Positions 23,102-62,348 of a stretch of DNA of 64,000 nt are shown here, piece by piece. The notes beneath the pieces are model-generated. The model was not told where the DNA came from, did no database searches, and saw nothing but the letters and a program-made list of their open reading frames with translations. A program made the position numbers and the translations under genes. The stretch is from assembly GCA_016190055.1 (NCBI GenBank), contig JACPRH010000005.1, positions 35,233 to 99,232 of the forward strand, written 5' to 3'. This DNA comes from Nitrososphaerota archaeon (GTDB taxonomy: Archaea; Thermoproteota; Nitrososphaeria; Nitrososphaerales; JACPRH01). Numbering within the stretch: position 1 is the stretch's first letter; the number at the start of each line of letters is the position of its first letter.

Positions 23102-24388
23102 CTAAGACACATTGAACATGTAGCTTATCGAGGAGCTACTACTGCCTGCGGTGATACATCTTTGAGATGAGTAACTGAAAATGGTTTGTCCGCTTGACGT
23201 TTCAACGACACGGAGGTTTCTGACGCAGGAGGAGTAGACGCTCTGCTTGAAGGTTAAAGTGTTCGTGCCGGATATTACGCTGCCCGTTATGTACATCGAG
23301 TAGCTGGTCCATGCGTTGTTATTTCCAGACAAGTATGATGAAGGTAAGCCGGCAACAACCTTCCCGTTAAGAGTGATTGTCACCTCATTAGCGTTATCGT
23401 AGTCATATCCTTCGAAGTACAGTTTGTACGCCTTGTTTGACGTTGACGTGGTTGTTGTGGTAGTAGTAGTTGTAGAGGAGGGTCCGGAGCTGCCATACAT
23501 AGATTGTGTTACTAGCCGCATGGTTCCGCTCTCGCTGACTGTGACGAAGTCGTACTTGCCGCTGACGAAGGTTATGCCTTCGCCTTGACCGTTGTTGAAG
23601 TGGATCTTCCATTCGCGAGAAGGTGAGGTAAAGAAGTCCTTGACATCTGTGGAAGATGAGGATCTCTCTATGATCCATTGATTATCGCTGTAGATAGCGG
23701 CGAGCGCCAATCGTCTTCCATCCTTTGAGATATCTGCGCCTCCGATGTAGCGGTCCTTAGACCAGTAGGTTACTAGTTGTGCGGTAACTGTTTTTCCCGA
23801 GACTATAGGTACCTTGTATACTCTTGCTGTTGGGCTATTAGTGAGGACGTAGGGGGTTCCCTGCCAGACGAAGCAGCTGTCCATATCTTTGGATCCGTCA
23901 GGTAGCCTGAAGTAGTAGGTGGCAGATGGGTAAATGTTGCGGGAGCCGCCGTAGGGATTAGGCTCTGGAACCTTGTAGAATCTGTAGTTGCTTCGCACCG
24001 CATTATTGTCACCGATATCGCAGACCCATAAGTTGTTGTTTGCATCTATAGCGATGTCCTCCCAATTCCAGTTTGATGCACCCTGCAACGGGAACCGACC
24101 TACTGTGCCGCCTTTACTGTTCACAGCGTATACAGAAGTTTGCGTGGATTGACCTGTATAATCAGATACCATCCAGTAAATGCCGGAGTAAGATCTGGAA
24201 GCCACAGTACCAGAGGATTCAGGAACGGAATGGTATCCCATGATAATAGGAGTGACGCTTAACGATGTATACGCGTAGGCCTGAAGAAGAAGTAGTGCTG
24301 AAAGCCCGGTTACGATCAGGACAGAAATAATTCCTTTGCAGAGAATGCGGTTGCTTTTATTTCCAACTCTAAAATATTTTGACGCCAA
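23102..24388 (-). CDS. Secreted protein: propeller-like N-domain, poly-Thr linker, beta-sandwich-like C-domain
   Basis: N-terminal TM/signal (ILCKGIISVLIVTGLSALLLL). WEDIAID...VCDIGDNNAVRSNY block. Linker SSTTTTTTTTTSTSN. C-terminal ~110 aa domain. Function not assignable. Confidence 0.6.
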   Translation of the reverse strand: MASKYFRVGNKSNRILCKGIISVLIVTGLSALLLLQAYAYTSLSVTPIIMGYHSVPESSGTVASRSYSGIYWMVSDYTGQSTQTSVYAVNSKGGTVGRFPLQGASNWNWEDIAIDANNNLWVCDIGDNNAVRSNYRFYKVPEPNPYGGSRNIYPSATYYFRLPDGSKDMDSCFVWQGTPYVLTNSPTARVYKVPIVSGKTVTAQLVTYWSKDRYIGGADISKDGRRLALAAIYSDNQWIIERSSSSTDVKDFFTSPSREWKIHFNNGQGEGITFVSGKYDFVTVSESGTMRLVTQSMYGSSGPSSTTTTTTTTTSTSNKAYKLYFEGYDYDNANEVTITLNGKVVAGLPSSYLSGNNNAWTSYSMYITGSVISGTNTLTFKQSVYSSCVRNLRVVETSSGQTIFSYSSQRCITAGSSSSSISYMFNVS

Positions 24389-24684: not shown

Positions 24685-25788
24685 ATGCCTGAAGTCAGAG
24701 TCGAATCCCTGAAGAAGAGCTTCGGCAGCGAGCTTGTGATAGATAATGTTACATTCACTGCTCACGACGGTATGTTCACCACAATACTAGGACCCAGCGG
24801 CTCAGGTAAAACCACCGTCCTAAGATGCATCGCGGGACTTGAAGAGCCTGACGAAGGAGAAATCTGGATCGGAGAAAACCTAGTGTTCTCCTCAACAGAG
24901 AAGGTGTCGGTGCCGCCTGAGAACAGAGGCATCGGCATGGTGTTCCAGTCATACGCAATCTGGCCGCACATGACCGTCTTCGACAACGTAGCTTACCCGC
25001 TTCAAGTCAGAAACATGCCGAAGAACGAAATTGAGAAACGGGTGAAGGCCAGTCTTGAACTCGTGGGCCTTCAAGGACTGGAGATGAGACCCGCACCCAA
25101 CCTCAGCGGAGGACAGCAGCAGCGAGTCGCACTGGCTCGAGCACTCGTCTATGAACCGAAGGTTCTCCTCCTCGACGAGCCGCTGAGTAACCTCGACAAC
25201 AGGCTGAGAGAGCGAATGAGAACTGAGCTGAAGGAGCTTCAACGAACAATCAAGGTCACCACCATCTATGTGACCCACGACCGGCTTGAGGCAATGGCTC
25301 TGAGCGACGAGGTCGCCTTGATGAGAAGAGGGCGGATTGCGGCTACCGGTAAACCGGATGATCTCTACAACAACCCACCGAACAGGTTCGTCGCCGGTTT
25401 CCTCTGCCGAATGAACATCTTCCTAGGAAAACAGACTGACAACACTAGGAAAGACCTGACGCAGATAGATACGACAATAGGATCTCTCTACTGCAAAGTT
25501 CCTGAAGCATTGAAGGGAGAAAGCGAAGTCATGGTGAGCATCCGGCGGAATGAAATCAGCATCGCCAGAGAAAAAGCATCAGGAGAAAACGTACTGACTG
25601 GAGTAGTGAAGAACAGGCTATTCGAAGGCGACTACGTCGAATACCACGTGGAGGTCGGAAAAGACATCGTGAAAGTTAGAGACGGTGGACCACAAACTAC
25701 CCTAGAGAAGAATGAGAAGGTCTACCTAAGCCTCCCGCCCGAAAACTGCTATGTGATCGAGAAGGCAGAAGCACTAGCAGTTGAGTAA
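24685..25788 (+). CDS. ABC transporter ATP-binding protein (FbpC/PotA-like, C-terminal TOBE-like domain)
   Basis: Walker A GPSGSGKTT, signature LSGGQQQRVALARAL, Walker B LLLDEPLS. The ~120 aa C-terminal extension is typical of the Fe3+/polyamine/sugar importer class. Confidence 0.9.
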   Translation: MPEVRVESLKKSFGSELVIDNVTFTAHDGMFTTILGPSGSGKTTVLRCIAGLEEPDEGEIWIGENLVFSSTEKVSVPPENRGIGMVFQSYAIWPHMTVFDNVAYPLQVRNMPKNEIEKRVKASLELVGLQGLEMRPAPNLSGGQQQRVALARALVYEPKVLLLDEPLSNLDNRLRERMRTELKELQRTIKVTTIYVTHDRLEAMALSDEVALMRRGRIAATGKPDDLYNNPPNRFVAGFLCRMNIFLGKQTDNTRKDLTQIDTTIGSLYCKVPEALKGESEVMVSIRRNEISIAREKASGENVLTGVVKNRLFEGDYVEYHVEVGKDIVKVRDGGPQTTLEKNEKVYLSLPPENCYVIEKAEALAVE

Positions 25789-25819
25789 ACAGGTAAAAAA
25801 AGCCAGCCAAGTTGCTTGC

Positions 25820-26704
25820 TTACTTAGGCATCGGATGACGCGAGAGTCGTTTACGTAGATTCATCAGCGCATCGATATTAGAGTGAATCGCCTTCCTGTG
25901 CTCGAAGAGGAGCTCACGTATAACCCAGCCCTCCTCAAGCAGCTCAAGAGAATCGTCAATTCGGTGAAGCGCAACCTTTAGCGCGACAATGCTCTTAGCC
26001 AAAGCTCGGTCGGTAATCCGCTGCTGCTTCTCTAGATCCGAGTAGGAGTATGGGATGCTGTCTGTAAAGGCGTCGAACTCAGGTAGATTTCCCCGATGAA
26101 TCATCTTAACCATGTCGCGGACGTCGCTTCGTGAGAGACTCTCGCCGACAGCCCTCATCCCGAGCTCAATCTGCTGGTTTTCATCGTCAAGTGAGAGAAG
26201 CTCCTCCCCAACACTCGGACTGATGTTTCGCCTCGCAATCTCAGCCCGAATCTCCTTCGGCAGTGAAAGGAGCCTCAAACGTTTGCTCACATAGACTTGG
26301 CTCTTACCTATCTGCCTCGCTAGCTCGCTTACCCCGCCCCAACCATAATCCTCCACATAACGTCTAAAGGCCTCAGCCTCCTCAACCGGGTTCAGCATGT
26401 TCCGCTGAACATTCTCGACCAGCGAGACCTCGAAAGCCTCCTTATCATCAAGCTCCACTATATGACAGGGAATCTTAATCCAGCCTAGCCTGCGACACGC
26501 CTCGAAACGCCTATTACCCGCAACAACCTCATAACCCTCCTCAACCGGGCGGACCACGATAGGCTGAAGAAGCCCAACCTTCGAGATTGACGCCATCAAC
26601 TCATCTAGGTCGCCGAGATCGCTTCTGAGACTCCGCTGAGCAGGATGAGTCTTCCGCATCTTCACCTCATCGAGAAAACCTGCGAGAGACGGGCCGTCCA
26701 TCAT
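25820..26704 (-). CDS. ParB/Spo0J-like protein (ParB N-terminal domain + HTH)
   Basis: GLLQPIVVRP...GYEVVAGNRRFEACRRLGW (GxRR box). HTH: ARQIGKSQVYVSKRLRLLSLP. The ~120 aa C-terminal region is of unknown type. Confidence 0.85.
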   Translation of the reverse strand: MMDGPSLAGFLDEVKMRKTHPAQRSLRSDLGDLDELMASISKVGLLQPIVVRPVEEGYEVVAGNRRFEACRRLGWIKIPCHIVELDDKEAFEVSLVENVQRNMLNPVEEAEAFRRYVEDYGWGGVSELARQIGKSQVYVSKRLRLLSLPKEIRAEIARRNISPSVGEELLSLDDENQQIELGMRAVGESLSRSDVRDMVKMIHRGNLPEFDAFTDSIPYSYSDLEKQQRITDRALAKSIVALKVALHRIDDSLELLEEGWVIRELLFEHRKAIHSNIDALMNLRKRLSRHPMPK

Positions 26705-26775
26705 AACAGTCAGAAAATCCCCGCAGAGTTATACTTTACTTTAATCCCCGAAAATCCCTGAAAGCATGAAGCCAA

Positions 26776-28482
26776 TTAGGGGGTCACCTTAAACATGAAC
26801 CTTCTACGCGAGACAAGGCTGACTATGATTATAGCAGCCCATAGAGCAAAGGTTAGCAAGATAATCGCAGCTATCGCCTGTTCAATATGTCCGCTGGACC
26901 ACACCCGGAAGAGGGTGGCTGAAATCACCTCGTTACCAGGAGTAAGCAGCAGAATTGCCGCGCCGATTTCTCTGAACGTAATCATAGCTATGTAGGCCCA
27001 GCCGCCTAGTAGAGCAGGCCTAAGCAACACAAGTGTGACCCTCCTGATCGTGTAGAGCGTCGAGGCGCCAGACACTCTTGAGGCGTCTTCAAGATCATGA
27101 TGAATCTGAAGAAGCGGTTCAGAGGTGAAACGCACACCGTGAGCCACATATTTGATAACATACGCGAGTACGAACGCCCAGATTGTTCCATATATCCCAA
27201 TTGGGAGACTGATGAAAGTCCAGAGCAGCCCGACACCGAGCACAAGCCCAGGGAAAGCGACCGGTAGCATAGCGAAAACCTCTAGGATCCCGCGGCCTTT
27301 GACACGACTCTTCTGGGAATAGTAGACGATGAAGACAGCGGCTAATACGGCGATGAAGGCTGAGATACTGGAGACTATGATGCTGTTGACCGCGCTGCTT
27401 GGGAGCTGGGAGTACGAGGTGAGATCAAGGTAGTTGGTGAGACTCAGGTTATCAAAGAGGGTCAGCGGATGCCAGTACGTTTGTAGAGAGGCGATTATGA
27501 GGGTAAAGTATGGGAGGATAACCCCCACGAAGAGATATAGAAGAAGAATAGCTAAGCCAAGGTATCGCCATTTCCCAAGCTTCATAATTCTAGGTGAATA
27601 CCCGCGCCCAGTGATAACGGCGAACCTCTCTGCGCGACGTGTCGCCCTCCGGTAAAGGTAGACGAAAAAGAGTGTGATTACGAACATGATGACAGATTGC
27701 GCGGTCGCTAATCCATAGTTTGGAGGGTTATCATAGAGTGCTGAGATGGTGATTACCGACATGTAGACATCTATATTTCCTGGGATTCCGATAATGGCTG
27801 GAATCTCAAATGATCCGAAGGCGATGATGAAAGAGAGTAAGAAGAGGGAGAGCATTGCGGGGCCCACAAGCGGGAGCGTAACTCGAAATAGCACTGCACG
27901 GACACCTCGGCCTGATATTCGCGCCGCCTCTTCTAGTGAAGGATCAAGGGAGACCATTGCGGATCTCACCCCGACGAAAGCCAAAGGCACCAAGGCGAGA
28001 CCCATCACCCAAATCATTCCTCCGAGGGAGTAAATGTTGAACGGAGGACTGGGAAAACCCAAGAACTGCGTAAAGAAAAGGTTGATCAACCCGGTTCTCG
28101 GAGTCAGCAGATAAACCCAAGCGAGCGATTCGGCGAGCGTCGGAATGACTAGTGCAAAGAAAGGAATGTAGGTGAATATTCGCGCTAACGGCGTATCGGT
28201 GCGTGAAGTTATGAACGCGATAACGGTCGCGATACTTGTCGCTAGAAAAGCGGAGCCCAGAGCAAAAACCACGCTGTTCAGGAGAAGACCGAGACTCCGG
28301 GCTTCACTGAACGTTGCAACATAATTGTCAAGCGTCAGGTGACCCGGCTCACCCGGATTTGAACTCCAAAGGCTTCCGAAGAAGAGCGCTACAGTAGGCA
28401 TTGCTATCAGCACACACATACTGACAATAACCGCCGGAATCAGCAACCGCGAAAGGCTTTTCGAAGCCAAGAGCGCCCTCAA
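26776..28482 (-). CDS. ABC transporter permease, fused two-module type (FbpB/ThiP-like)
   Basis: About 12 TM helices. Two EAA loops (EEAARISGRGVRAVLFRVTLPL and EDASRVSGASTLYTIRRVTLVL). Confidence 0.9.
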   Translation of the reverse strand: MRALLASKSLSRLLIPAVIVSMCVLIAMPTVALFFGSLWSSNPGEPGHLTLDNYVATFSEARSLGLLLNSVVFALGSAFLATSIATVIAFITSRTDTPLARIFTYIPFFALVIPTLAESLAWVYLLTPRTGLINLFFTQFLGFPSPPFNIYSLGGMIWVMGLALVPLAFVGVRSAMVSLDPSLEEAARISGRGVRAVLFRVTLPLVGPAMLSLFLLSFIIAFGSFEIPAIIGIPGNIDVYMSVITISALYDNPPNYGLATAQSVIMFVITLFFVYLYRRATRRAERFAVITGRGYSPRIMKLGKWRYLGLAILLLYLFVGVILPYFTLIIASLQTYWHPLTLFDNLSLTNYLDLTSYSQLPSSAVNSIIVSSISAFIAVLAAVFIVYYSQKSRVKGRGILEVFAMLPVAFPGLVLGVGLLWTFISLPIGIYGTIWAFVLAYVIKYVAHGVRFTSEPLLQIHHDLEDASRVSGASTLYTIRRVTLVLLRPALLGGWAYIAMITFREIGAAILLLTPGNEVISATLFRVWSSGHIEQAIAAIILLTFALWAAIIIVSLVSRRRFMFKVTP

Positions 28483-28599
28483 CCATCTAGCTGCGTAACA
28501 TAAAAGCAGTTTTTCACAGAATCCTGAATAAAGAAAGAATAGGAAGAAAAGATCAGAGCGGACGCTAAGGGTTAACTAGATAAAAAAATATGCGCCGGC

Positions 28600-28627
28600 G
28601 AATAACTTACCTTGAAGTAAGTTATTC
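28600..28627 (-). promoter_or_regulatory. Intercistronic stem-loop (11-bp perfect stem, 6-nt loop) right after the SBP stop codon
   Basis: GAATAACTTAC-cttgaa-GTAAGTTATTC read directly. It abuts the SBP stop (28628-28630) and precedes the permease start (28482). Confidence 0.6.
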
Positions 28628-29782
28628 TTAAGGCTGACTGGTGAAGAGCTTTGTGAAGTAACTCTTGTAAGTTGCGCTATTCTTGACCACGTCGTCGTTC
28701 GGGAAGATTTTTAGATCGTCTGGAGTCTTGCCCGGTAGCACCGTCTGGAGTGTGTATTTTGCAGTGATGTCTTGGCGGGCTGCTATCCTTACCTCGCTGT
28801 TCCCGACCATAGTCTGGCCGTCCTTAGAGAGTATCCAGTCCATGAAGAGTCTCGCGGCGACTGGGTGTGTAGCGTTAGTCACTACGCCCACGGGGAGTAG
28901 GCTTGTCAGCACAGGTAGCCCATCAATTGTGAAGGCGGCTACAGGGGCGCCTTTGTTCTTGGTTCCGAGAAAGTCATGCATATAGACTGATAGGGCGATG
29001 CTTTCTTCGCCGCTTGCAACTGGGTTGATTACATCTTCAAAGGCTGCTTTACGGATAGGCTGGACATTCGTGGCTAGTCGTTCCATGAAGGAGGTCCACT
29101 CTTGTTCACCCATGTATTGCTTTAAGGTGGCGAAGTACTGTGTTCCGACAGTTCCTAGTGTAAGATCGTGGATCGTGTCCTTGCCCTTCCACTTGGGATC
29201 AACAAGTTGATCTACAGTATGTGGAACATCTGAGTCCGGCACTAGAGCGGTGTTACGGACCTGAAGCATTGGGAGAAGCATTGCGGCGACCCAGTGACCT
29301 GTTGAATCTTTGAAGATCGCGGGGTAGGCTGCGGCCTCCGGCGAGTTGTACTGTTCTAGAAGACCCTTGTTTTGCAGGCTAAGCTGAAGAGAAAGACTAA
29401 TCATGACTACGTCAGCAGTCGGTTTGTTAGCTGCCCGCTCAGTCGTTATCTTTGTGAAGATGTTACCAGGCGTATCTGTAAAGAACTGGATACGGGTGCC
29501 CGGGTACTTTTCTTCGAAGACTTTCTGCCACGGAGCGAAGGTCTGTTGATCAACAGTCGTGTAGACAACAAGCGTGTCTTCGGGCTTAGGAGCAGATGTT
29601 GTTGAGGTGCTGGAGGTGGTAGTAGTTGATGTGCTACTGGTGGTGGTTGAGGAGGTGGGGGTGGTTGTGGATGGGTTTAGTGATATGTAGGCTGCGGCTG
29701 CGATGGCGACGATTACTACGATGGCTATTCCTATGTAGGCGTTGCGGTTAACCAATATATTTTCACTACTATGCGAAGACAA
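28628..29782 (-). CDS. ABC transporter substrate-binding protein (family-1 SBP, Fe3+/thiamine-like), membrane-anchored with Thr/Ser linker
   Basis: N-terminal TM (YIGIAIVVIVAIAAAAYISL), linker TTTPTSSTTTSSTSTTTTSSTSTTS, then an SBP fold (LVVYTTVDQ...). Heads the operon with the permease. Confidence 0.85.
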   Translation of the reverse strand: MSSHSSENILVNRNAYIGIAIVVIVAIAAAAYISLNPSTTTPTSSTTTSSTSTTTTSSTSTTSAPKPEDTLVVYTTVDQQTFAPWQKVFEEKYPGTRIQFFTDTPGNIFTKITTERAANKPTADVVMISLSLQLSLQNKGLLEQYNSPEAAAYPAIFKDSTGHWVAAMLLPMLQVRNTALVPDSDVPHTVDQLVDPKWKGKDTIHDLTLGTVGTQYFATLKQYMGEQEWTSFMERLATNVQPIRKAAFEDVINPVASGEESIALSVYMHDFLGTKNKGAPVAAFTIDGLPVLTSLLPVGVVTNATHPVAARLFMDWILSKDGQTMVGNSEVRIAARQDITAKYTLQTVLPGKTPDDLKIFPNDDVVKNSATYKSYFTKLFTSQP

Positions 29783-29863
29783 TAAAGATAACTAATAAAG
29801 ATTTTTCATTCAGACGAAGAGTTGATATCATGTTGCCACCGCCATTAAACTATATATAGAGAG

Positions 29864-31039
29864 TTGGGTTTCATTTTATCCGATTTGAGACTATCGGTTC
29901 CTAGCCGGTTCGAAATGGAGCTGCTGGAGAAGTTTGGGCGCTTTAACAAGAAGTACGGCAGCATCGACAAGATATACGGTTCGCTGCCGAGCTCGATTAT
30001 TGGGCACGGCAGAATCGCAGGGCTAGTGAAGAAGTTCGGAGACTTTGACATGGATCATGTCAGAGAGTTCACGGAGGAAGCGCATAGAATCGGGATTAGA
30101 GTGAACTATCTCGCAAACACACTCTGCCTAGGAGAGGTAGGTTACACTAACGATGGGCGAGAGAAAATTCTCAGCTACCTTGGAGAAGTGTATGAGACGG
30201 GTGCAGACATCATAACCGTCGCCTCACCCTATATTCACCGGCTCGTCAAAACCGAGTATCCTAGCTTGAAGACAGAGATCTCGGTTTACGCTGAAATCGA
30301 CACCGCCCAGAAGTTCAAGAGATGGGAAGAGCTCGGCGCAGACATCATCAACCTGCCTTCGCGAGCCAACCGTGACTTTGAGCTCCTCGAAAGCATCGCT
30401 AAATCCCGCAAAACCGAAGTTGAACTCCTCGTAAACGAATCCTGCCTCTTCCACTGCCCATACTCACTTTACCACCACACAGTAAGCTCTCACCGATCCC
30501 GCATCCCCGACGACGGCGTAGACTACTGCATGCTGGAATGCGTGCAGGATCGGCTAGAAGACCCCTCTGAGCTACTCAAGGCAGCTTGGATCAGACCTGA
30601 AGACATCGCGTACTACGAGAAAACCTACGGTATCGACCGGTACAAGATCCAGGGAAGACAGATGCCGGTTCAATGGATTGAAAAGACAGTCGAAGCCTAC
30701 TCAACCAGAAAGTACAGCGGAAACCTGCTTGACCTAATCAGCCCAACCTACCCAGACTGGTCAGCCCGCTCAGCAGCCAACCAGCAGACTCTGCCAGGAT
30801 TCCAGCCTCAAGACCTAAAGAGACCAGACGTATACATCGACAATAGCCAGCTCGATAGGTTCTTCACAACTCTAGTTAAGAAAGGGGGATGCGCCCCGAC
30901 AAAACCATGCGACACCTGCAGATACTGCAACCAAGCATCGAAGAATCTGGTTCAAATCAGGAACCAGGAACAGTTCAAAACCTATGCGGCTGCGACAAAA
31001 GCGCTTTTTGAACACGCAATAACTGCATCCACTGCCTAG
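29864..31039 (+). CDS. Peptidase-U32-family protein (UbiU/UbiV/RlhA-like putative Fe-S hydroxylase family)
   Basis: TIM-barrel-like U32 pattern: FTEEAHRIGIRVNYLANT...ETGADIITVASPYIHRLVKTEYPSLKTEISVYAEID...LGADIINLPSRANRDFELL...EVELLVNESCLFHCPYS. Four-Cys group: ESC, FHC, DYCMLEC. The TTG start is uncertain, because a TATA-like ctatatata lies only ~10 nt upstream. Confidence 0.7.
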   Translation: MGFILSDLRLSVPSRFEMELLEKFGRFNKKYGSIDKIYGSLPSSIIGHGRIAGLVKKFGDFDMDHVREFTEEAHRIGIRVNYLANTLCLGEVGYTNDGREKILSYLGEVYETGADIITVASPYIHRLVKTEYPSLKTEISVYAEIDTAQKFKRWEELGADIINLPSRANRDFELLESIAKSRKTEVELLVNESCLFHCPYSLYHHTVSSHRSRIPDDGVDYCMLECVQDRLEDPSELLKAAWIRPEDIAYYEKTYGIDRYKIQGRQMPVQWIEKTVEAYSTRKYSGNLLDLISPTYPDWSARSAANQQTLPGFQPQDLKRPDVYIDNSQLDRFFTTLVKKGGCAPTKPCDTCRYCNQASKNLVQIRNQEQFKTYAAATKALFEHAITASTA

Positions 31040-31092
31040 TCAAGACAGGCACGTCGATCTGACCCAGGTAAATCCAGCAAAGTAATGCTTTA

Positions 31093-31515
31093 ATGGTCAT
31101 CGCTGCAGGCTCGGTGAAGCATAAATTGACTCAGTTCTGGTCTAAAGAATTCTTTGAGCAAGCTGGTGAGCGGCTTAATCGTGACGATGAACTCACCAAG
31201 GTTTTCGCCGGTATGAACACTACCATACTCGCAGTAAGTAGTGACAAAGATGAGGCGTTCCTGATCCAGGTGGAAAACGGGAAGATCAGTTCAAGAGAGG
31301 CGCGCCCAGAGGATAAGGCGGAGTTCAAGTTCACATCACTCTATGAAAAATGGGAGAAGATAGCTAAGGGAGAGATGAGAGTCCAAAGCGAAGTAGTCAA
31401 AGGCGGCATCAAGTTCACCGGCTCGATGCCTAAAATGCTGCTCTACCTCGGCAAAGTAGTCCGAATGGAGAAGAAAATTCTCAACATCATCAAATCGATG
31501 AACCTTGAGTACTAA
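31093..31515 (+). CDS. SCP2 (sterol carrier protein 2-like) lipid-binding domain protein
   Basis: 140 aa. SCP2 pattern: ...TILAVSSDKDEAFLIQVENGKI...AEFKFTSLYEKWEKIAKGEMRVQSEVVKGGIKFTGSMPKMLLYLGK. Confidence 0.75.
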   Translation: MVIAAGSVKHKLTQFWSKEFFEQAGERLNRDDELTKVFAGMNTTILAVSSDKDEAFLIQVENGKISSREARPEDKAEFKFTSLYEKWEKIAKGEMRVQSEVVKGGIKFTGSMPKMLLYLGKVVRMEKKILNIIKSMNLEY

Positions 31516-31649: not shown

Positions 31650-32585
31650 ATGACCAAGCTAGTCGTATATACATCATTCTCGTTTATCCTCGACACGTTC
31701 GACATATCGCTGAGAGCGAAATACGCAGATGAACACTTTCACCTGATCACCTTCCGCGACCACCCAAAGATGGTTTACGAACGAATTAAGAAGGAAACAG
31801 AGACTGGAGAACGTACCGCCGATCTCGTGATAGGCCCGCATTGGATGATCCTGAACCTCCAACTCCAAGGTCTCCTACGACACTATGACTCACCTGAATT
31901 CGCTGCATACCCGAAGGAGTTCCACAACCCGAAGGGAGCTTGGTGCGCAATGGCACTCTCACCCGTAGGCCTCGCCTACAACACCGACTTGGTCAAGGAA
32001 GATGAGGCGCCGACGACATTAGATGGAGCGCTTGACGAGAAGTGGCGCGGAAAACTAGCCGCCCACGAAATCACCGACAACGTGGAAGGACAGATGGGAC
32101 TCACATACCTGACCGCACTCAACCGCATCATAGGCGAAAAGAAGTGGAACGAAATAGTCGGAAGGCTAGCTGATCTTAAACCGAAGACCTATATGTGCAT
32201 GCCTGAGATGGCACTAAACATTGGGTTAGGTAACAGCTACCTCGGCCTCCCCGCGACCCTGGCCTGCATTTCATACTACCTAGATATCCAAGGCCGGCCA
32301 GTCGCTCACAGAATGCCCACAGACATCCCATACATGGCGACCTTCGCACCCACAATCGCCATCGTAAAGGGCGGCGAGAACGCGGATTGGGCTGAACGAG
32401 CATTCAACTTCGCGCTCTCAGAGGATTGGCAATCCCACGTCGAGGGATTGGGCGGAAAGATTCCGACTAGACCAGGCATGGCTTCTTTAAACCCCGTTCC
32501 GGAAGATGCGAAGTATTTCCCAACCCTTGAAGATGCGAGAAACATACCGAAGTACCTTGACATCTTGAGAAGCAAGATGGCGTAA
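31650..32585 (+). CDS. Leaderless (cytoplasmic) paralog of the ABC substrate-binding protein
   Basis: Collinear similarity to the SBP at 28628-29782. For example, YDSPEFAAYPKEFHNPKGAWCAMALSPVGLAYNTDLV...LDEKWRGK aligns with YNSPEAAAYPAIFKDSTGHWVAAMLLPMLQVRNTALV...VDPKWKGK. It starts directly with the first beta-strand (KLVVYTS) and has no TM/signal or Thr-rich linker. Confidence 0.7.
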   Translation: MTKLVVYTSFSFILDTFDISLRAKYADEHFHLITFRDHPKMVYERIKKETETGERTADLVIGPHWMILNLQLQGLLRHYDSPEFAAYPKEFHNPKGAWCAMALSPVGLAYNTDLVKEDEAPTTLDGALDEKWRGKLAAHEITDNVEGQMGLTYLTALNRIIGEKKWNEIVGRLADLKPKTYMCMPEMALNIGLGNSYLGLPATLACISYYLDIQGRPVAHRMPTDIPYMATFAPTIAIVKGGENADWAERAFNFALSEDWQSHVEGLGGKIPTRPGMASLNPVPEDAKYFPTLEDARNIPKYLDILRSKMA

Positions 32586-32695: not shown

Positions 32696-34132
32696 TTAGA
32701 CGGCGGTTACAGCGTCTTTGTATTCAACGGCTCGTTTGATGATTTCAGATTCCGTGAGGTCTTCACGCTCCAGTCCGAGCGGGTGCTCGATCTTTCCTTC
32801 GCCTAGATCGCGGCAGTAATCGTAATAGTCTTTGAAGCTGCTTCTCAGCCGCCGCATGTTGAACCGTTTCGGAAACAAGTCTATGGGTGAGCCGGGTGTT
32901 AGCCGGAGTGGGACGCATTCAAGCTGATCCTGCGGATTCTGGAACATCTGCGGGTACCGCTTCTTCATTTCAAGCGATAATTTGACAGTTTCTTGGAAGT
33001 CCTGTTCTGTTTCGAATGGGAGGCCACAGATGAACCAGAGAAAGAGCTGTGCACCGCGTGGAGAACCGACTTCCGAGATTTTCTCAACCGCCTTTGACAA
33101 CTGGTTGTTGGTGTAGAACTGCTTGTGGAAGCCTTGGCTGCAGAGCTTGTCTCTGAGCCTCTCGGAGCCGCTGTCAGGAGAGATTTGGATCTCGAAGCTC
33201 CTGAAGCTTTCGCCCACTTGGGAGATCAGCTCGTTTGATGGAAGGTTCCAAGGGAGGAAGGTGAGATCAACATCAAGCGGCTTAAGCTCAGCGAAGAGCT
33301 TCTGGAAGTAGGTTTCATCTTTGAAGGGCCCAAAGTCGAGGAAGAGGCTTTCAACCCCATTCTCACTAAGGAGGTTTGCGTCTCGGACAACATCCTCGAC
33401 GGGGCGAAATATTGAGACTCCGCGGCTGAAGATTCTGGTTGAGCCTGTTTTCGAGGTTCCGCAGAAGCAGCAGTTGTAGCTGCAGCCCTTACCCACATAT
33501 AGGTAGAACTCGCTTGATTTTGTGGATACCTTCTCAACTATTTTGCCGGACGATATCGGAGCGGAGGTGCGGACACGGGTCGTTTTGAGGTAATGATCCC
33601 ACTCATCAACCATCTCATTCATGTCTTTGTTGGCAGCGCTCAGGTTTTCAAGCGATGTCTGATGGTAGGTAATCGGCTTAGAAACAAACTCCCCGTCCTT
33701 CATGAACGAAGCATTCTCAGTACGCTCCGGATCAAGGGTGGAGACGTAGTCAAGAAGCGGCTTCTCACCATCACCTTTAACGATGAGGTCGATTGCCGAT
33801 GTGAAATCCAGTATCTGCTTGTTGAAGTAGGTGGATGTGTGGCCGCCGATTACCACCTTTGTCTCGGGGGACTCGGCTTTAACTGCCTCCGCGACCTTCA
33901 ACGCTTCATAACTGTGAATGTACCAGTGTAGACTGATGCAGGCGACCTTCGGATTAAACTGACGAATCTTCGTTCTCACCGTTTCTTCAGTGTTCTTATC
34001 CACAAGCACGGCGATTCGTGAATCATAGGCGTGTTTCCGGAGATAAGCGGACAGACTTAGCATGCCAAGGGAGATTATCCCGTACTGCTTGCCCACAGCA
34101 GGCTGGAAGAAGAGAACATCCACATCCGGCAT
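32696..34132 (-). CDS. B12-binding-domain radical SAM protein (class B rSAM)
   Basis: N-terminal cobalamin-binding Rossmann-like domain (VLFFQP...ISLGMLSLSAYLRKHAYDSRIAVLV...ACISLHW...VVIGGHTSTY). Radical SAM cluster motif CSYNCCFC (CxxxCxxC). Confidence 0.85.
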   Translation of the reverse strand: MPDVDVLFFQPAVGKQYGIISLGMLSLSAYLRKHAYDSRIAVLVDKNTEETVRTKIRQFNPKVACISLHWYIHSYEALKVAEAVKAESPETKVVIGGHTSTYFNKQILDFTSAIDLIVKGDGEKPLLDYVSTLDPERTENASFMKDGEFVSKPITYHQTSLENLSAANKDMNEMVDEWDHYLKTTRVRTSAPISSGKIVEKVSTKSSEFYLYVGKGCSYNCCFCGTSKTGSTRIFSRGVSIFRPVEDVVRDANLLSENGVESLFLDFGPFKDETYFQKLFAELKPLDVDLTFLPWNLPSNELISQVGESFRSFEIQISPDSGSERLRDKLCSQGFHKQFYTNNQLSKAVEKISEVGSPRGAQLFLWFICGLPFETEQDFQETVKLSLEMKKRYPQMFQNPQDQLECVPLRLTPGSPIDLFPKRFNMRRLRSSFKDYYDYCRDLGEGKIEHPLGLEREDLTESEIIKRAVEYKDAVTAV

Positions 34133-34240: not shown

Positions 34241-34489
34241 ATGTCGGCCTTACGAGATGCTTTCGCTGAGCTAGATGAGAAGCAGACGCTTCTAGCGATC
34301 CAGCAAATGATTGACCGTGGAGAAGATCCTAAGGAGATACTGGCTGAGGCGCGTCGAGGATTACAGATTGTCGGCGAACGGTTTGAAGCGAGGCAGTACG
34401 CGCTTATTGAGCTTGAGATGGCTGATGAGCTTTTCCGAGAATGCGTCAAAGCGGTGGAGGAGAAGACGGATCAGGGGAGGGTGGACTGA
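34241..34489 (+). CDS. Stand-alone corrinoid-protein 'cap' (B12-binding_2 helical bundle) mini-protein
   Basis: 82 aa. LRDAFAELDEKQTLLAIQQMIDRGEDPKEILAEARRGLQIVGERFEARQYALIELEMADELFRECVKAV matches the N-terminal cap of MtaC/MetH-type corrinoid domains. The ORF stops before any DxHxxG Rossmann module, and only 80 nt remain before the next gene. Confidence 0.6.
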   Translation: MSALRDAFAELDEKQTLLAIQQMIDRGEDPKEILAEARRGLQIVGERFEARQYALIELEMADELFRECVKAVEEKTDQGRVD

Positions 34490-34569: not shown

Positions 34570-35679
34570 ATGCCTAAAAAAATTAACATGTCGAGGGAGA
34601 GACTTCGAAGAGCCGTCGAGTGCGAGACACCGGACCGTGTTCCAATCACGATTAGGCTTGAGTACGCTGCGGCGCGCTGGGCCGGGATCAGCTTCAAGGA
34701 TTTTGCGCTCGATCCTCTGAAGGCCTCTAACGCGATTGAGCAGACATACGAGAAGATGGGAGGATGGGACGCTGTGGACGCGTCTTGGACATTAGGCACC
34801 CGGTGGAGCAGGCTTGAGGCGGCTAAGGTTCAGTTCCCGGGAGTAGATTTCCCTGAGCAGCTTCCGCATAGAGTAGTTGACTATCCTGTGATGACGCCTG
34901 AGGACTACGGTTTAGCGGTTAAAGGAGGGTTGAATAGCCTAGCCACTGTTCTGCTAGACCGGCTCGGAAAGAAGATAGATAGGAGCACAAGCGAGGAGGT
35001 ATTCATATCGTTTACACCCATTTACAGACACTGGGATGAGGAGAAGGGTGTGCCGGTCTACAGGGGAGGTATGGTGAGGCTCCCGTTCGTACAGTTCTCG
35101 ATGTGGCGCACGTGGCGCGGAATGGCGCATGATCTTCTGAAGCAAGGTGACAAGGTGAAGGAGGCTTGCGATGCGGTTTTAGATGAAGCAATAACGATCG
35201 GGGAGAAGCACAGCCGCATCGTTGGCTGCAAATACATCTTCATGCCCTGTGGCCGCGCTTCAGCAACCTTCCTCTCAGAGAGACTCTTCCTAGAATACGT
35301 TTTCCCACATCTAAAGAAGATCACTGAAAAACTTGTTCAAGACGGGTTCACTCCTCGCCTACACTGCGACACAGACTGGGAGCCGTTTCTACAGTTCTTC
35401 CGTGAGCTGCCGAAAAAGAGCTGCATTCTCGAGCTGAGCCCAGCCACCAACATCAAGCGAGCCAAGGAGCTGCTTGGAGGCCACATGTGCCTGTACGGCA
35501 ATGTCCCGAGAAGCCTCCTTTCAGCAGGCTCCCCCGCTAGCGTAGAGACATACTGCAAGAAGCTAATTGATAATGTTGGGCGAGACGGATTCATCTTAGC
35601 AAATGATGATATTGTTCCATACAACGCTAGGTTCGAGAATGTTAAGATGCTCATAGACGCTGGGAAAAAATACGGGTAA
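34570..35679 (+). CDS. URO-D family protein, MtaA/CmuA-like methylcobamide methyltransferase homolog
   Basis: N-terminus RERLRRAVECETPDRVPI and C-terminus GGHMCLYGNVPRSLL...GFILANDDIVPYNARFENVKMLIDAGKKYG are typical of the family. PRLHCD is a possible Zn-ligand region. Confidence 0.8.
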   Translation: MPKKINMSRERLRRAVECETPDRVPITIRLEYAAARWAGISFKDFALDPLKASNAIEQTYEKMGGWDAVDASWTLGTRWSRLEAAKVQFPGVDFPEQLPHRVVDYPVMTPEDYGLAVKGGLNSLATVLLDRLGKKIDRSTSEEVFISFTPIYRHWDEEKGVPVYRGGMVRLPFVQFSMWRTWRGMAHDLLKQGDKVKEACDAVLDEAITIGEKHSRIVGCKYIFMPCGRASATFLSERLFLEYVFPHLKKITEKLVQDGFTPRLHCDTDWEPFLQFFRELPKKSCILELSPATNIKRAKELLGGHMCLYGNVPRSLLSAGSPASVETYCKKLIDNVGRDGFILANDDIVPYNARFENVKMLIDAGKKYG

Positions 35680-35745: not shown

Positions 35746-37605
35746 ATGACTCGACTTCTAGCGCCTTTGATAATTCTCCTAATCATATCATCCAGTATCA
35801 CGTTACTAATCGCGCCTCAAACAGCAGTAGGCCAGCAGCAGCAACAGCAACCACCGACCGCTGGCGACTGGGTTGCCACAGGTTACGATTACAAACACAC
35901 CGGGTTTAACCCTCAGACGGTGATTAACCGGGACAATGTGAAGGAGTTGGAGTTCAAATGGATTTACCAGCTCCCCTCGAACCCATACCGAAGTATTCTA
36001 CAACCGTCGCTTGGTCTTGAGACGAATCCGCTGGTCGTGAATGGAATGGTTTACTTCGCCGCATCCTACAGCAAGGTGTTTGCAGTCAACGCTTTGACTG
36101 GAAATCTAGTGTGGAGCCACGAGGTGAACGTAACCAAGGCACTTGAGAAGCCGTACATCGGTAACTTTGGAATACAACACGCGATTACATACAAGAGTGG
36201 CCTCATCTATCAGCTGGCAATAGACTGCACCCTTTACGGTCTCGACGCGGCGAACGGTCAAGTGAGGCTGCAGATCGATGACATCTGTAAAGATATACCG
36301 GGGAACAGAGGATTGTACTTCGGAGAAGAGGCGCCTACAATATATGAGAAGGACGGGCGAAGGATAGCTGTCGTACCTGTTGCAGCTGGACTCTTCTATG
36401 CACGAGGCTTCGTCGCAGCCTACGACCTCGAAACTAAGGAACTGCTGTGGCGATGGTTTGTTATTCCTCCTGGTGTAGAAGGGCCTAAGGATAACTGGGA
36501 AGGATACCAAGATGTAAGCAAAGGCAACATCAAGCCTTACCCCGGGGACTGGGGAGACAGCAGCGAAATCTGGGGAGGCTCAGCTTGGGTCTCAAGCTCC
36601 ATCGACGAGGACACCGGTCTCGTCTACACATCCACCGGTTACCCCGGCATCGGCTTGACACTTGCAGGTAATGGAGACGCCTCAAGGAGACCGGGGCCGA
36701 ACCTGTACACCAACTCGATAGTGGCGCTCGACGTGCTGACAGGCAAGATGAAGTGGTATTATCAGGTGACACCGCACGATTTAGTCCAGCACGGCTTCGG
36801 ATGGAACACGATACTCGCCAAAGTCACTATTGACGGTCAGGAGAAGAAGGTCATAGTCACCGGCAGCAAGAACGGGTACGTCTACGAGCTCGATGCGGTT
36901 ACAGGTGAGCCGGTCATACAGCCTGTGAAGGTAGGAGTTCACCTCAACGACTACAACACGAACCTAGGTAACGATGCAGACATGACGATGAACCAGCAAC
37001 CAGGAGTCACCTGCCCCGGAGGAAACGGCGGAATCGAAGCACCGGTAGCCGTCGCGCACAACACCATTTTTGCCGCAGCCCAGAACCGATGCTTTGATTG
37101 GCGACCGGTTCCGAACGCGTACAAAGGAACCGCAGTATGGGTCGCCGGCCCAGTGATGGATAGACCCCAAAACTCAACACTCTACGCCATCGACGCCACA
37201 TCAGGCAACATCAAGTGGCAGTTCAACATGCCTAACCCATACCAAGGAGCTGGCGTTATCGTCAGCGGAGGAGTCGTCTTTGCGCAGGACAGAATCGGAA
37301 CACTATACATGTTAGATGAGCAGAACGGGCAGCTTCTCAGGAGTATCTACTTCGGCGGGCTCGGCGCCGCAGGAGTATCCATCGGCCAGAATCCAAGAGG
37401 AGAAACAATGCTTTTCGTACCCTCCGGCGGAGGAGACATAATTGTACCCACGCCCGGCACACTCACAGCCTTCGCGTTACGTGAAGGATCCTCGTCCAGC
37501 GGAGGAGGAACATTCACAAACGAGGTGGTCTACATTGCGATAGCGGTTGCAATCGTAATGGGAGGAATCGCCTTGGTAAGCCTGAGAAGAAAATCAGTAA
37601 AGTAG
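35746..37605 (+). CDS. PQQ-like beta-propeller (quinoprotein dehydrogenase-like) exoprotein with N- and C-terminal membrane segments
   Basis: The N-terminal block GDWVATGYDYKHTGFNPQTVINRDNVKELEFKWIY resembles the quinoprotein dehydrogenase start (W..G.d....yspL.qIn..NV..L..aW). Repeated propeller blades follow (VNGMVYFAAS, GLIYQLAIDCTLYGLDAANG, GKMKWYY, GYVYELDAVTGE, LYAIDATSGNIKW, GTLYMLDEQNGQ). C-terminal TM plus RRKSVK tail. Confidence 0.7.
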   Translation: MTRLLAPLIILLIISSSITLLIAPQTAVGQQQQQQPPTAGDWVATGYDYKHTGFNPQTVINRDNVKELEFKWIYQLPSNPYRSILQPSLGLETNPLVVNGMVYFAASYSKVFAVNALTGNLVWSHEVNVTKALEKPYIGNFGIQHAITYKSGLIYQLAIDCTLYGLDAANGQVRLQIDDICKDIPGNRGLYFGEEAPTIYEKDGRRIAVVPVAAGLFYARGFVAAYDLETKELLWRWFVIPPGVEGPKDNWEGYQDVSKGNIKPYPGDWGDSSEIWGGSAWVSSSIDEDTGLVYTSTGYPGIGLTLAGNGDASRRPGPNLYTNSIVALDVLTGKMKWYYQVTPHDLVQHGFGWNTILAKVTIDGQEKKVIVTGSKNGYVYELDAVTGEPVIQPVKVGVHLNDYNTNLGNDADMTMNQQPGVTCPGGNGGIEAPVAVAHNTIFAAAQNRCFDWRPVPNAYKGTAVWVAGPVMDRPQNSTLYAIDATSGNIKWQFNMPNPYQGAGVIVSGGVVFAQDRIGTLYMLDEQNGQLLRSIYFGGLGAAGVSIGQNPRGETMLFVPSGGGDIIVPTPGTLTAFALREGSSSSGGGTFTNEVVYIAIAVAIVMGGIALVSLRRKSVK

Positions 37606-61739: not shown

Positions 61740-62348
61740 TTGCCTAACGTTACTACTCGGTTGGTTGTTGGTATTTCAGGTGCTTCAGGCGCCATCTACG
61801 GGGTAAGGCTGCTTGAAGTGTTGAAGAGTAAGGGTGTTGAGACGCATCTCATAATCACTCCGTGGGGTGAAGAGATGATCAGGGTTGAGACAGATATGTC
61901 GCCTGACGATGTGAAGAACCTCGCAACACAGGTATATGATGATAAAGATATGGCGGCTCGCGTCTCAAGCGGCTCGTTCAAGTTCGATGGAATGGTAGTT
62001 ATCCCCTGCAGCATGAAGACTATCTCCGCGATTGCTAACGGATACGCCTCGACTCTCCTCGTTCGCGCAGCAGATGTCACGATGAAGGAGGGGCGGAAGC
62101 TGATTGTTGTTCCCCGGGAAACACCGGTAAACCAAGTGCATCTGAAGAATATGCTTCAGTTAGCCCAAATGGGAGTGACGGTGCTACCGGCGATGCCCGG
62201 CTTCTACCACCGACCCAAATCAATGGGCGACCTCGTCGATCATGTTGTAGGTAAGGTTCTGGATCAGTTCAACATAGAGCATAATCTCTACAAACGTTGG
62301 CAACCTATGAGAGACCAGCAACATCTTGCGGATCAGAAGCACTACTAA
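61740..62348 (+). CDS. ubiX: UbiX/Pad1-family flavin prenyltransferase
   Basis: LVVGISGASGAIYGVRLLEVL, VVIPCSMKTISAIANG and LIVVPRETP blocks. TTG start 3 nt after the flavodoxin-like stop. Confidence 0.9.
   Translation: MPNVTTRLVVGISGASGAIYGVRLLEVLKSKGVETHLIITPWGEEMIRVETDMSPDDVKNLATQVYDDKDMAARVSSGSFKFDGMVVIPCSMKTISAIANGYASTLLVRAADVTMKEGRKLIVVPRETPVNQVHLKNMLQLAQMGVTVLPAMPGFYHRPKSMGDLVDHVVGKVLDQFNIEHNLYKRWQPMRDQQHLADQKHY

Follow-up and report, generated by a model that had tools for sequence, protein, structure and literature searches.

Proteins of the U32 superfamily are, to our knowledge, associated with only three types of reaction: hydroxylation of the ubiquinone ring, formation of ho5U in tRNA and formation of ho5C in rRNA. 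Reviews describe the majority of U32 subfamilies as uncharacterised, and Kimura et al. distinguished 12 U32 groups by manual definition. Members of the superfamily have been proposed to act as prephenate-dependent Fe-S hydroxylases, with UbiT as an SCP2 accessory factor (PMC6747719, PMC10990095, PMC11574389), and those with cysteine motifs are regarded as Fe-S oxidases (PMC11574389). The O2-independent activity of UbiUV and the prephenate origin of the O atom are known from genetics and labelling only, and hydroxylation in vitro is yet to be shown for any U32 enzyme (PMC10990095). The Fe-S ligands of UbiU and UbiV have been defined experimentally, and a fusion of UbiT to UbiU has been reported in Zymomonas (PMC6747719). 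UbiU and UbiV form a heterodimeric U32 pair in Proteobacteria; TrhP (YegQ) and RlhA (YdcP) act as single U32 products in E. coli. A search of the literature for U32 proteins together with SCP2, Asgard, Nitrososphaera or radical SAM returned nothing beyond the papers on UbiUVT.

The locus described here lies in a 64-kb stretch of DNA (the window) from the chromosome of an uncultured archaeon of the Nitrososphaerota. An earlier note on this DNA had described a U32 ORF followed, on the same strand and after 53 nt, by an SCP2 ORF of 140 aa, and had read the two as an archaeal analogue of the UbiU/V-UbiT module; both genes are present as it placed them, and both family assignments held. The first (29864-31039, + strand, 391 aa) matches the Pfam family Peptidase_U32 (PF01136) over residues 100-281 with 46.5 bits (cut-off 22.4), and is predicted to encode an Fe-S enzyme with a TIM-barrel fold, from a U32 subfamily that is uncharacterised. 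An exact-sequence look-up of the protein gave no identical entry; there is a cluster (P0001) that is 98% identical to it. The best Foldseek match of its AF2 model (pLDDT 92.3, pTM 0.92), searched against the PDB only, is the U32 domain of MK0906 from Methanopyrus kandleri (5d88; E 8e-11, TM on target 0.75), the only U32 domain with a solved structure. This closest solved structure also matches the family profile (E 3e-22), but has 254 aa, lacks cysteines at the cluster positions in the profile alignment and has no C-terminal four-cysteine region. The true start of the gene is probably TTG 29885, which gives 384 aa, because homologues are 382-389 aa long and align to the window ORF from residue 8, and because a TATA-like box read from the sequence (TATATATA, 29851-29858, + strand) lies about 27-34 nt upstream of this codon. 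The box is a putative archaeal promoter, from which we infer a leaderless or short-leader U32 mRNA.

The second ORF (31093-31515, + strand) encodes 140 aa from its ATG, although translation may start at GTG 31114 (133 aa) instead; the 53 nt that separate this ATG from the U32 stop (31039) contain no oligo-T run. Two Pfam families are matched above their cut-offs, SCP2 (PF02036; 23.1 bits, cut-off 21.3) and the SCP2-like domain Alkyl_sulf_C (30.8 bits, cut-off 27). The Foldseek matches of the AF2 model (pLDDT 91) are SCP2 structures, namely a Thermus structure (2cx7, TMq 0.73), AF1534, human SCP2 and the UbiJ-SCP2 structure 6h6o (TM 0.58-0.67); 1wfr and 3bn8 are among the matching entries. Its invariant residues are mainly hydrophobic or aromatic, and the protein is a putative lipid carrier.

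Two further observations of the earlier note, that the U32 gene is single and that no ubiquinone genes are in view, were borne out. The family HMM matches no other ORF of the 64-kb window, and the related loci likewise show one U32 gene each; a lone U32 gene has precedents since TrhP and RlhA each act as single products, while the heterodimeric UbiUV pair differs in this respect. Of the 40 larger window ORFs scanned (about a dozen smaller ones fall outside the scan), none was recognisable as a gene of a quinone pathway or of aromatic-lipid biosynthesis, a role in ubiquinone or menaquinone biosynthesis was rejected for want of such genes in that set, and the window has no PKS gene. Nitrososphaerota are not known as producers of ubiquinone.

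In the numbering of the 391-aa U32 ORF, and with conservation taken from the alignment columns of 73 subfamily members, eight of its nine cysteines are conserved in Fe-S-like motifs. The four clustered cysteines that had been pointed out earlier are real and form a central motif, C194-X3-C198-X23-C222-X3-C226 (30443-30541, + strand), a putative [4Fe-4S] site. C194, C198 and C226 are invariant, whereas C222 is present in only 50 of the 73 members. The C194 and C198 columns correspond to UbiU C169 and C176 and to the first two cysteines of RlhA and TrhP, that of C222 to the third cysteine of RlhA, TrhP and UbiV, and that of C226 to UbiV C197; the spacing is CX3CX23CX3C, as opposed to the canonical CX6CX15CX3-4C of Fe-S U32 oxidases. 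The remaining conserved cysteines had been overlooked. One is Cys88 (codon 30125-30127, + strand), which about 97% of the subfamily shares and the E. coli U32 proteins lack; given that C222 is so often missing, it is a candidate alternative fourth ligand. The others make up a C-terminal motif, C343-X5-C349-X2-C352-X2-C355 (30890-30928, + strand), a putative second metal or Fe-S site, of which each cysteine is retained in 71-72 of the 73 homologues (about 97%) and to which UbiU, UbiV, RlhA and TrhP have no counterpart in the alignment. Judged by these columns, CX5CX2CX2C is the hallmark of the subfamily, and the protein probably carries two Cys-ligated clusters, one held by C194, C198 and C226 together with C222 or C88, and the other by the C-terminal motif.

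In a neighbour-joining tree the subfamily is parted from all four E. coli U32 proteins (UbiU, UbiV, RlhA and TrhP) in 198 of 200 bootstraps. The tree is crude: the long outgroup branch joins within the Nitrososphaerota clade, which brings support for the monophyly of that clade to 0/200 replicates, and topology within the family is given no weight here. The protein scores 12.4 bits against the UbiU model NF047963 (cut-off 440; E. coli UbiU control 559.9) and gives no match at E <= 1 to the UbiV models NF047965 and NF011991 (cut-offs 275 and 283; E. coli UbiV control 363 and 440). For the SCP2 protein, there is likewise no match at E <= 1 to the UbiT model NF047962 (cut-off 46.9; E. coli UbiT control 153.6), and neither blastp nor HMM comparison finds similarity to UbiT. 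The U32 protein can be equated with none of UbiU, UbiV, TrhP and RlhA, being assigned to an uncharacterised subfamily, and its SCP2 partner is not UbiT. The claimed analogy to UbiU/V-UbiT is thus one of architecture and not of orthology. Both systems link a U32 TIM-barrel with Fe-S-aligned cysteines to a stand-alone SCP2 protein, both include U32-SCP2 fusions (UbiT-UbiU in Zymomonas, and the apparent Asgard case described below), and the lipophilic substrate of the one is probable for the other. On the other hand, the window pair is non-orthologous, with its CX3C...CX3C spacing, added Cys88 and added C-terminal four-cysteine motif; its partners are B12-radical-SAM, SBP-like and MtaA-like genes with no ubiquinone pathway in view; and its U32 and SCP2 genes are separable within the clade.

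The subfamily so delineated is widespread. At 50% identity it forms about 400 clusters, it has at least 593 genome matches, and it extends across many phyla of bacteria and three lineages of archaea. Its diagnostic second cysteine motif is accompanied by a consistent lipid or polyketide context. Across 79 loci the commonest class of neighbour is radical-SAM genes, mostly B12-binding (31 loci), followed by AMP-ligase (24) and type III PKS genes (nine, L005 and 8 other loci), and SDR, ACP, DegV, O-methyltransferase, MMPL, YceI and ABBA prenyltransferase genes are also found. Distant members occur in lipid, polyketide or prenyl-aromatic gene clusters. The radical-SAM enzymes, acyl ligases, PKSs, prenyltransferases and YceI and DegV carriers suggest hydrophobic substrates, which fits the hydrophobic substrate proposed in the earlier note. 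The phenolic-lipid clusters of Streptomyces griseus (SrsABC) comprise a type III PKS, a methyltransferase and a flavin hydroxylase. Similar to them are those loci in which distant U32 members (about 32% identity) lie beside type III PKS, UbiE-like and ICMT-like methyltransferase, MMPL and YceI genes, and there the U32 gene appears to stand where SrsABC has its O2-dependent hydroxylase.

The reading preferred here, whose chances we judge to be evenly balanced, is that of an O2-independent Fe-S hydroxylase or oxidase to which SCP2 presents a lipid-like substrate. By analogy to UbiU/V, TrhP and RlhA, the U32 enzymes characterised so far, the U32 protein would be a cytoplasmic enzyme carrying out an O2-independent two-electron oxidation or hydroxylation. 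Electrons would pass through its clusters, and the O atom would come from an organic donor, for instance prephenate. The substrate would be a small hydrophobic molecule associated with the membrane, with isoprenoid or alkyl substituents and possibly aromatic, which SCP2 would extract from the membrane and present to the U32 enzyme, as proposed for UbiT and UbiJ with ubiquinone intermediates. It is plausible that the neighbouring cobalamin radical-SAM enzyme would act on this molecule too, by C-methylation or another tailoring step.

The conservation of the pairing bears directly on this reading. In the window's clade, in which U32 identity is 55-78%, the order U32-then-SCP2 is kept in nine distinct contexts, that is, in nine of the ten that bear a U32 gene, the SCP2 gene following directly and in the same direction. 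MAGs that carry the locus are represented by the NCBI proteins MCL5316818.1, MCL4435646.1 and MBI2936706.1. The left flank of U32 is conserved too, and it borders SCP2 in loci that have no U32 gene; it is a divergent ABC importer set (24685-29782) identified by Pfam and NCBIfam, which in the window consists of an importer ATPase (24685-25788, + strand), a ParB-like gene (25820-26704, - strand), a fused double permease (26776-28482, - strand) and a membrane-anchored SBP (28628-29782, - strand). To the right, a cytoplasmic SBP-like protein (31650-32585, + strand; SBP_bac_6 fold in Pfam, no signal peptide or TM segment), about 29% identical to its exported paralogue, the SBP at 28628-29782, is encoded next after SCP2 in every SCP2-bearing locus with sequence past SCP2 (tblastn and gene tables). 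Beyond it lies a cobalamin-binding radical SAM enzyme (32696-34132, - strand; B12-binding and Radical_SAM domains), which is found with SCP2 wherever a locus of the clade extends far enough and is distantly TIGR04190/Ta0216-like, with a score under the cut-off of that model. Two more genes hold conserved positions: one for a small B12-binding_2 protein consisting of the 'cap' domain only (34241-34489, + strand; PF02607, 30.7 bits), and one for a URO-D/MtaA-like methyltransferase (34570-35679, + strand; URO-D, 78 bits), which the NCBIfam MtaA and CmuA models match under their cut-offs. A link to hydroxy-GDGT synthesis was considered and rejected, that synthesis being assigned to a radical-SAM desaturase and an AttH hydratase in a preprint (10.1101/2025.10.20.683597) that makes no mention of U32, SCP2 or Ta0216.

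The pairing has exceptions as well. Two contexts (L092/93 and L094) have the arrangement SBP<>SCP2-SBPlike-B12rSAM-B12b2-UROD with no U32 gene, and in one other (L003/4) U32 adjoins SBP in the absence of SCP2, the SBP-like gene and B12-rSAM; the two genes are separable, since each can be found without the other. In L003/4 the right-hand module is replaced by other corrinoid or MtaA-like genes, a PEP_mutase-family gene and a phosphonate-type SBP. A role in phosphonate metabolism, raised by PhnS-like SBP matches and by the PEP_mutase-family gene of L003, was rejected, as the scores are far under the equivalog cut-offs. The cassette is best explained as an accessory island that differs between related genomes, and not as part of a core pathway. 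These exceptions also speak for a rival account, possible although we would not call it probable, by which the adjacency is positional: SCP2 would serve the SBP-like/B12-rSAM/MtaA-like module, for example by bringing lipid to the radical-SAM methylase, and U32 would be an independent insertion by the ABC importer, perhaps acting on an imported compound. Consistent with this account, SCP2 keeps its module where U32 is missing and U32 persists where the module has been replaced. The SBP-like, B12-rSAM and MtaA-like genes are closer companions of SCP2 than U32 is; the spacing from SCP2 to the SBP-like gene is short and constant, whereas U32 and SCP2 are 96-210 nt apart in relatives, which leaves room for a separate promoter. 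The nine contexts out of ten count against it, and so does the rank of B12-rSAM genes as the commonest partners of the U32 subfamily, which allows the 'two modules' to be read as a single pathway, some of whose steps are optional.

A further argument against mere position comes from Asgard archaea. In Thorarchaeota and Promethearchaeota an SCP2 gene is again adjacent to U32, although this SCP2 lineage is unrelated to that of the window and the gene order is opposite, and at one locus (L043) a continuous ORF of 683 aa appears to be a U32-SCP2 fusion. An HMM built from the SCP2 proteins of the window's clade found no SCP2 outside the clade and missed those of Asgard archaea, which the Pfam scan alone revealed. 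This separate association supports a real functional affinity between U32 and SCP2. Recruitment of SCP2 by the subfamily took place on two or more occasions, separately from that of UbiT in Proteobacteria, and the enrichment of SCP2 beside U32 reflects only two independent evolutionary events beyond Proteobacteria. Of 150 small ORFs drawn at random from more distant parts of the same loci, the families that occur two or more times do not include SCP2. The pairing is conserved but not obligatory.

That the U32 protein is instead an RNA-modifying hydroxylase of the TrhP/RlhA kind, making ho5U or ho5C next to an irrelevant SCP2 gene, is very unlikely. It belongs to the same superfamily, with the first three cysteine columns aligned; its best similarity among characterised proteins, although very weak, is to TrhP (blastp E 8e-7), and database names of some distant homologues point the same way, one from Methanophagales being entered at its source as RlhA/YrrN/YrrO. 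Against this, the score of 18.6 bits with the TrhP model NF011996 is far under the cut-off of 534, and neither an RNA-binding domain of those families nor their C-terminal domains Peptidase_U32_C and DUF3656 are detected by Pfam, which gives PF01136 only. The distribution within the clade is patchy, and only two Nitrososphaerota loci are among the 80 best genome matches, unlike that of a housekeeping RNA-modification enzyme, and the neighbours over the 79 loci are lipid and polyketide genes rather than translation genes. A genuine peptidase or collagenase, as implied by what Pfam calls the family, by the annotation at NCBI ('U32 family peptidase') and by the collagenolytic activity reported for PrtC and HP0169 (cited in PMC5727448), is least credible of all for a protein with no signal peptide, eight of nine cysteines in conserved Fe-S-like motifs and a biosynthetic gene context, given that U32 proteins with such motifs are held to be Fe-S oxidases (PMC11574389).

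If the subfamily does consist of hydroxylases, as the preferred reading has it, they would explain O2-free oxygenation of hydrophobic natural products, possibly of membrane or redox lipids, in anaerobes and microaerophiles. A broader and more speculative extension, to which we give limited credence, is that U32 and SCP2, with or without the B12-radical-SAM enzyme, form a recurrent, horizontally mobile cassette oxygenating prenylated or alkylated aromatic lipids without O2. Were this true, Nitrososphaerota, Asgard archaea and many anaerobic bacteria (Dehalococcoidia, Planctomycetota, Omnitrophota and others) would make undescribed quinone-like or phenolic lipids. The Asgard operon, which contains two rSAM-SPASM genes, a B12-rSAM, an ABBA aromatic prenyltransferase, SCP2 and U32, would in that case make up a whole pathway of such a kind. 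For archaeal biology, the loci flag candidate pathways for lipophilic cofactors in Nitrososphaerota and Asgard archaea. Several operons of the subfamily that would lend themselves to experimental testing occur in cultured bacteria such as Desulfoluna butyratoxydans (MSL71) and Lacrimispora amygdalina (DSM 12857), carriers of PKS, AMP-ligase or rSAM clusters, and Thomasclavelia saccharogumia.

The U32-family gene of the window occupies 29864-31039 (+; 391 aa; Pfam Peptidase_U32, 46.5 bits, gathering score 22.4) and is followed on the same strand, after 53 nt, by an ORF at 31093-31515 (+; 140 aa) that matches both Pfam SCP2 (23.1 bits against 21.3) and the SCP2-like domain Alkyl_sulf_C (30.8 against 27). 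Predicted structures support both assignments. The U32 model, computed from an alignment of 53 sequences (A1), has alternating strands and helices (pLDDT 92.3, pTM 0.92), and its closest PDB match is 5d88, the sole solved U32 domain, with generic TIM barrels next; the SCP2 model (pLDDT 91) matches Thermus SCP2 2cx7 (TMq 0.73), AF1534, mammalian and insect SCP2, alkylsulfatase C-terminal domains and the UbiJ SCP2 domain (6h6o). The gene pair described in the earlier note is therefore real. That note counted one U32 gene; this gene, annotated by NCBI as 'U32 family peptidase', is the only ORF in the 64-kb window to match the family HMM. Homologues are 382-389 aa long, their alignment begins at window residue 8, and a TATATATA box at 29851-29858 lies ~27-34 nt 5' of an in-frame TTG at 29885; together these suggest that TTG 29885 is the true start and that the product would have 384 aa. 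The 53 nt that separate the two genes in the window contain no oligo-T run, which makes read-through transcription plausible there.

Judged by sequence comparison, the window protein is not UbiU, UbiV, TrhP or RlhA. The NCBIfam equivalog model for UbiU gives it 12 bits, against 560 for E. coli UbiU, and the TrhP model 18.6 bits against a cut-off of 534; the UbiV equivalog models do not match it (E. coli UbiV control, 363-440), and the equivalog models return nothing for the window SCP2 protein (the UbiT model scores 154 on E. coli UbiT). BLASTP against E. coli yields TrhP at E 8e-7, RlhA at 1e-4, UbiU at 0.5 and UbiV at 0.7, which are marginal values; UbiU, RlhA and TrhP match one another at 1e-32 to 1e-43. 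The phylogenetic placement proposed earlier agrees: in a crude NJ tree of 288 barrel columns, 198 of 200 bootstraps set the subfamily apart from the four E. coli proteins. Pelosi et al. found more than one of ubiT, ubiU and ubiV only in ubiquinone-producing proteobacterial classes and three Acidithiobacillia genomes (PMC6747719), a distribution consistent with the failure of the window proteins on the UbiT/U/V-specific models. The window protein is very probably a U32 Fe-S enzyme of a distinct subfamily. At least 593 members were confirmed from a pattern scan of species-representative genomes. Run exhaustively against 1.84 billion cluster representatives, phmmer returned 406 clusters at E <= 1e-30 and 1067 at E <= 1e-10; in this search the U32 proteins of the window's own Nitrososphaerota clade form one 50% cluster, with the next relatives just 42% identical. 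The subfamily is represented in Dehalococcoidia, Omnitrophota, Planctomycetota, Solirubrobacteraceae, Desulfobacterota, Clostridia, Sulfolobales and Asgard archaea. In the papers searched, we found neither this subfamily nor a U32-SCP2 module outside UbiUVT described.

All four clustered cysteines named in the earlier note (C194, C198, C222 and C226) are present, but the conservation expected of putative ligands holds for three: C194, C198 and C226 are invariant in 73 homologues and in A1, and C222 is retained in only 50 of the 73. C194/C198 align with UbiU C169/C176 and the first two cysteines of RlhA and TrhP, C226 with UbiV C197, and C222 with the third cysteine of RlhA, TrhP and UbiV. C88, ~97% conserved in the subfamily and without counterpart in the four references, may be a remote fourth ligand, as the distant C39 is in UbiV (PMC6747719). 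The C-terminal motif C343-X5-C349-X2-C352-X2-C355, also ~97% conserved and missing in all four references, is a hallmark of the subfamily and suggests a putative second cluster or metal site.

UbiU and UbiV, each carrying one [4Fe-4S] bound by conserved cysteines, are both needed for O2-independent hydroxylation of ubiquinone intermediates, with prephenate as oxygen donor and UbiT as SCP2 accessory factor; no U32 protein has so far been directly shown to hydroxylate in vitro (PMC6747719, PMC10990095, PMC11574389). By analogy, the window protein would be a two-cluster Fe-S oxidase/hydroxylase, SCP2 would pass it a lipophilic substrate, and the neighbouring B12-binding radical SAM (B12-rSAM) protein would tailor the same molecule. 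The lone U32 gene is no obstacle, since TrhP and RlhA are single gene products in E. coli. Hydroxylase chemistry is an even proposition; a functional partnership with SCP2 is slightly favoured, and the probability of a ubiquinone-like product is low.

Loci of the clade show three gene orders. State A (SBP <> U32, SCP2, SBP-like, <B12-rSAM, B12-binding_2, URO-D, PQQ-DH) is found in nine distinct contexts (the window and loci L001/2, L010, L011, L089/90, L091, L095, L096 and L097), with U32 proteins 55-78% identical; short contigs, e.g. L011, L089/90, L095 and L097, end before the distal genes. State B, in the AT-rich lineage of L092/93 and L094, is the same island without U32, the SBP gene facing SCP2 across ~295 nt. 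In state C (L003/4) U32 adjoins SBP, and the place of SCP2, SBP-like and B12-rSAM is taken by a phosphonate-type SBP, a PEP_mutase-family gene and corrinoid-protein/MtaA-like pairs. The pairing that the earlier note expected in relatives is therefore frequent but not obligatory. SCP2, a narrow family (30 clusters, none below 50% identity), is linked more constantly to SBP-like and B12-rSAM than to U32, and the U32-SCP2 gaps of 96-210 nt in relatives leave space for a separate promoter. States B and C speak for a positional adjacency, with SCP2 serving a B12-rSAM/SBP-like/MtaA-like module and U32 acting independently; recurrence of the pair in Asgard archaea speaks against this reading, which we regard as possible though unlikely.

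The SBP-like gene (31650-32585, +), next after SCP2 in each locus whose contig continues past SCP2, encodes a cytoplasmic 'binding protein': an SBP_bac_6-fold protein without signal peptide or membrane anchor, paralogous (~29% identity) to the exported SBP at 28628-29782. An 82-aa protein (34241-34489, +) consists solely of a B12-binding_2 'cap' domain, without a Rossmann B12-binding domain, and adjoins an MtaA/URO-D-like methyltransferase (34570-35679, +); the two are kept with B12-rSAM throughout the clade. A PQQ-dependent dehydrogenase (35746-37605, +), which has a signal/TM segment at its N-terminus and a TM segment at its C-terminus, forms the right edge of the island in most related loci; next to it, on the other strand, comes an MFS transporter. 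At L003:9355-15648 (GCA_053537335.1), the sole U32 locus of the clade without SCP2, three corrinoid-protein/MtaA-like sets after U32, together with the PEP_mutase-family gene and an NMT1/phosphonate-type SBP, suggest a corrinoid-dependent methyl-transfer island in that archaeal lineage.

Among the immediate U32 neighbours at 80 loci, a Pfam census picked up three SCP2 proteins, of which one came from outside the clade. In Promethearchaeota L054 and L063 U32 is directly preceded by a co-directional SCP2 gene; Thorarchaeota L023 has a corresponding 135-aa ORF (82% identity to the L063 SCP2), and Promethearchaeota L043 has a continuous 683-aa ORF in which a U32 paralogue is joined at its C-terminal end to an SCP2 domain (85% identical to that of L063). 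The SCP2 part is preceded by an SD-like GAGGTG and an ATG, so separate initiation or an assembly error is possible. BLAST shows no similarity between the Asgard SCP2s and that of the window, and the Asgard gene order is the reverse of that in the window's clade, which indicates a separate recruitment event. SCP2 was not among the families seen at least twice in 150 random small ORFs farther out in the same loci, a sample in which the lipid-binding proteins YceI and DegV did recur. The operons (L063:3186-11419, L054:3251-11416, L023:5618-11401 and L043:4052-11407) comprise two rSAM-SPASM genes, B12-rSAM, an ABBA aromatic prenyltransferase (PTase_Orf2), SCP2 and U32 (471-488 aa), L043 having instead three U32 paralogues, one of them the apparent fusion; they look like a complete pathway to a tailored prenylated aromatic compound. 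A weak DUF2621-like segment, present both at the N-terminus of one rSAM-SPASM enzyme and in the C-terminal extension of the Asgard U32 proteins of the same operon (L063:5341-6801, L043:9992-11407, L043:7904-9955), may be a docking or cluster-binding module that they share. The observation of the earlier note was real, and its interpretation as a UbiU/V-UbiT analogue partly right. It offers a concrete lead into a widespread, uncharacterised branch of the superfamily of O2-independent hydroxylases, although U32 and SCP2 are separable in the clade to which the window belongs.

Within five genes of U32 at 79 loci, the subfamily is accompanied by radical SAM proteins, mostly B12-binding (31 loci), AMP-dependent ligases (24), additional U32 paralogues (~11-12), type III PKS (nine), SDR and ACP (six each), and DegV, O-methyltransferase and MMPL (five each). 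On a bacterial 459-kb contig (L005:3174-10560, GCA_040960625.1), YceI, type III PKS, MMPL and a 220-aa protein precede U32, and UbiE-like and then ICMT/PEMT-like methyltransferases follow; we take this cluster to resemble phenolic-lipid or alkylquinone clusters, with U32 perhaps in the place of the O2-dependent hydroxylase expected there. As a whole, these contexts speak for small hydrophobic molecules as substrates, and against both RNA modification and proteolysis. An RNA hydroxylase is very improbable, and a true peptidase is scarcely credible.

The window itself is ordinary archaeal chromosome, with archaeal SAM synthetase, NucS, RadA, NFACT, GatA/GatB, AspRS, Fae-Hps, thermosome and KaiC-like genes. 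NCBI MAGs labelled Thaumarchaeota/Nitrososphaerota archaeon carry proteins that share 100% identity with its thermosome; three close relatives (protein clusters P0106-P0108) are 85-93% identical, and the other matches listed 72-80%. Of the 40 larger window ORFs scanned, none was recognisable as a quinone-pathway gene, in line with the earlier remark that no ubiquinone genes were in view. A PF02441 Flavoprotein (UbiX/CoaC-type; 61740-62348, +), 30 kb from the U32 gene and without evidence of a connection to it, is the sole window gene loosely linked to prenyl-aromatic cofactor chemistry. A 428-aa ORF without Pfam match (23102-24388, -) has a poly-Thr/Ser linker and, at its N-terminus, a hydrophobic segment; it is probably a secreted or surface protein. 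A ParB_N + HTH_ParB protein (25820-26704, -) lies between the ATPase and permease genes of an ABC importer, an odd site for a ParB-like protein that is kept in all related loci.
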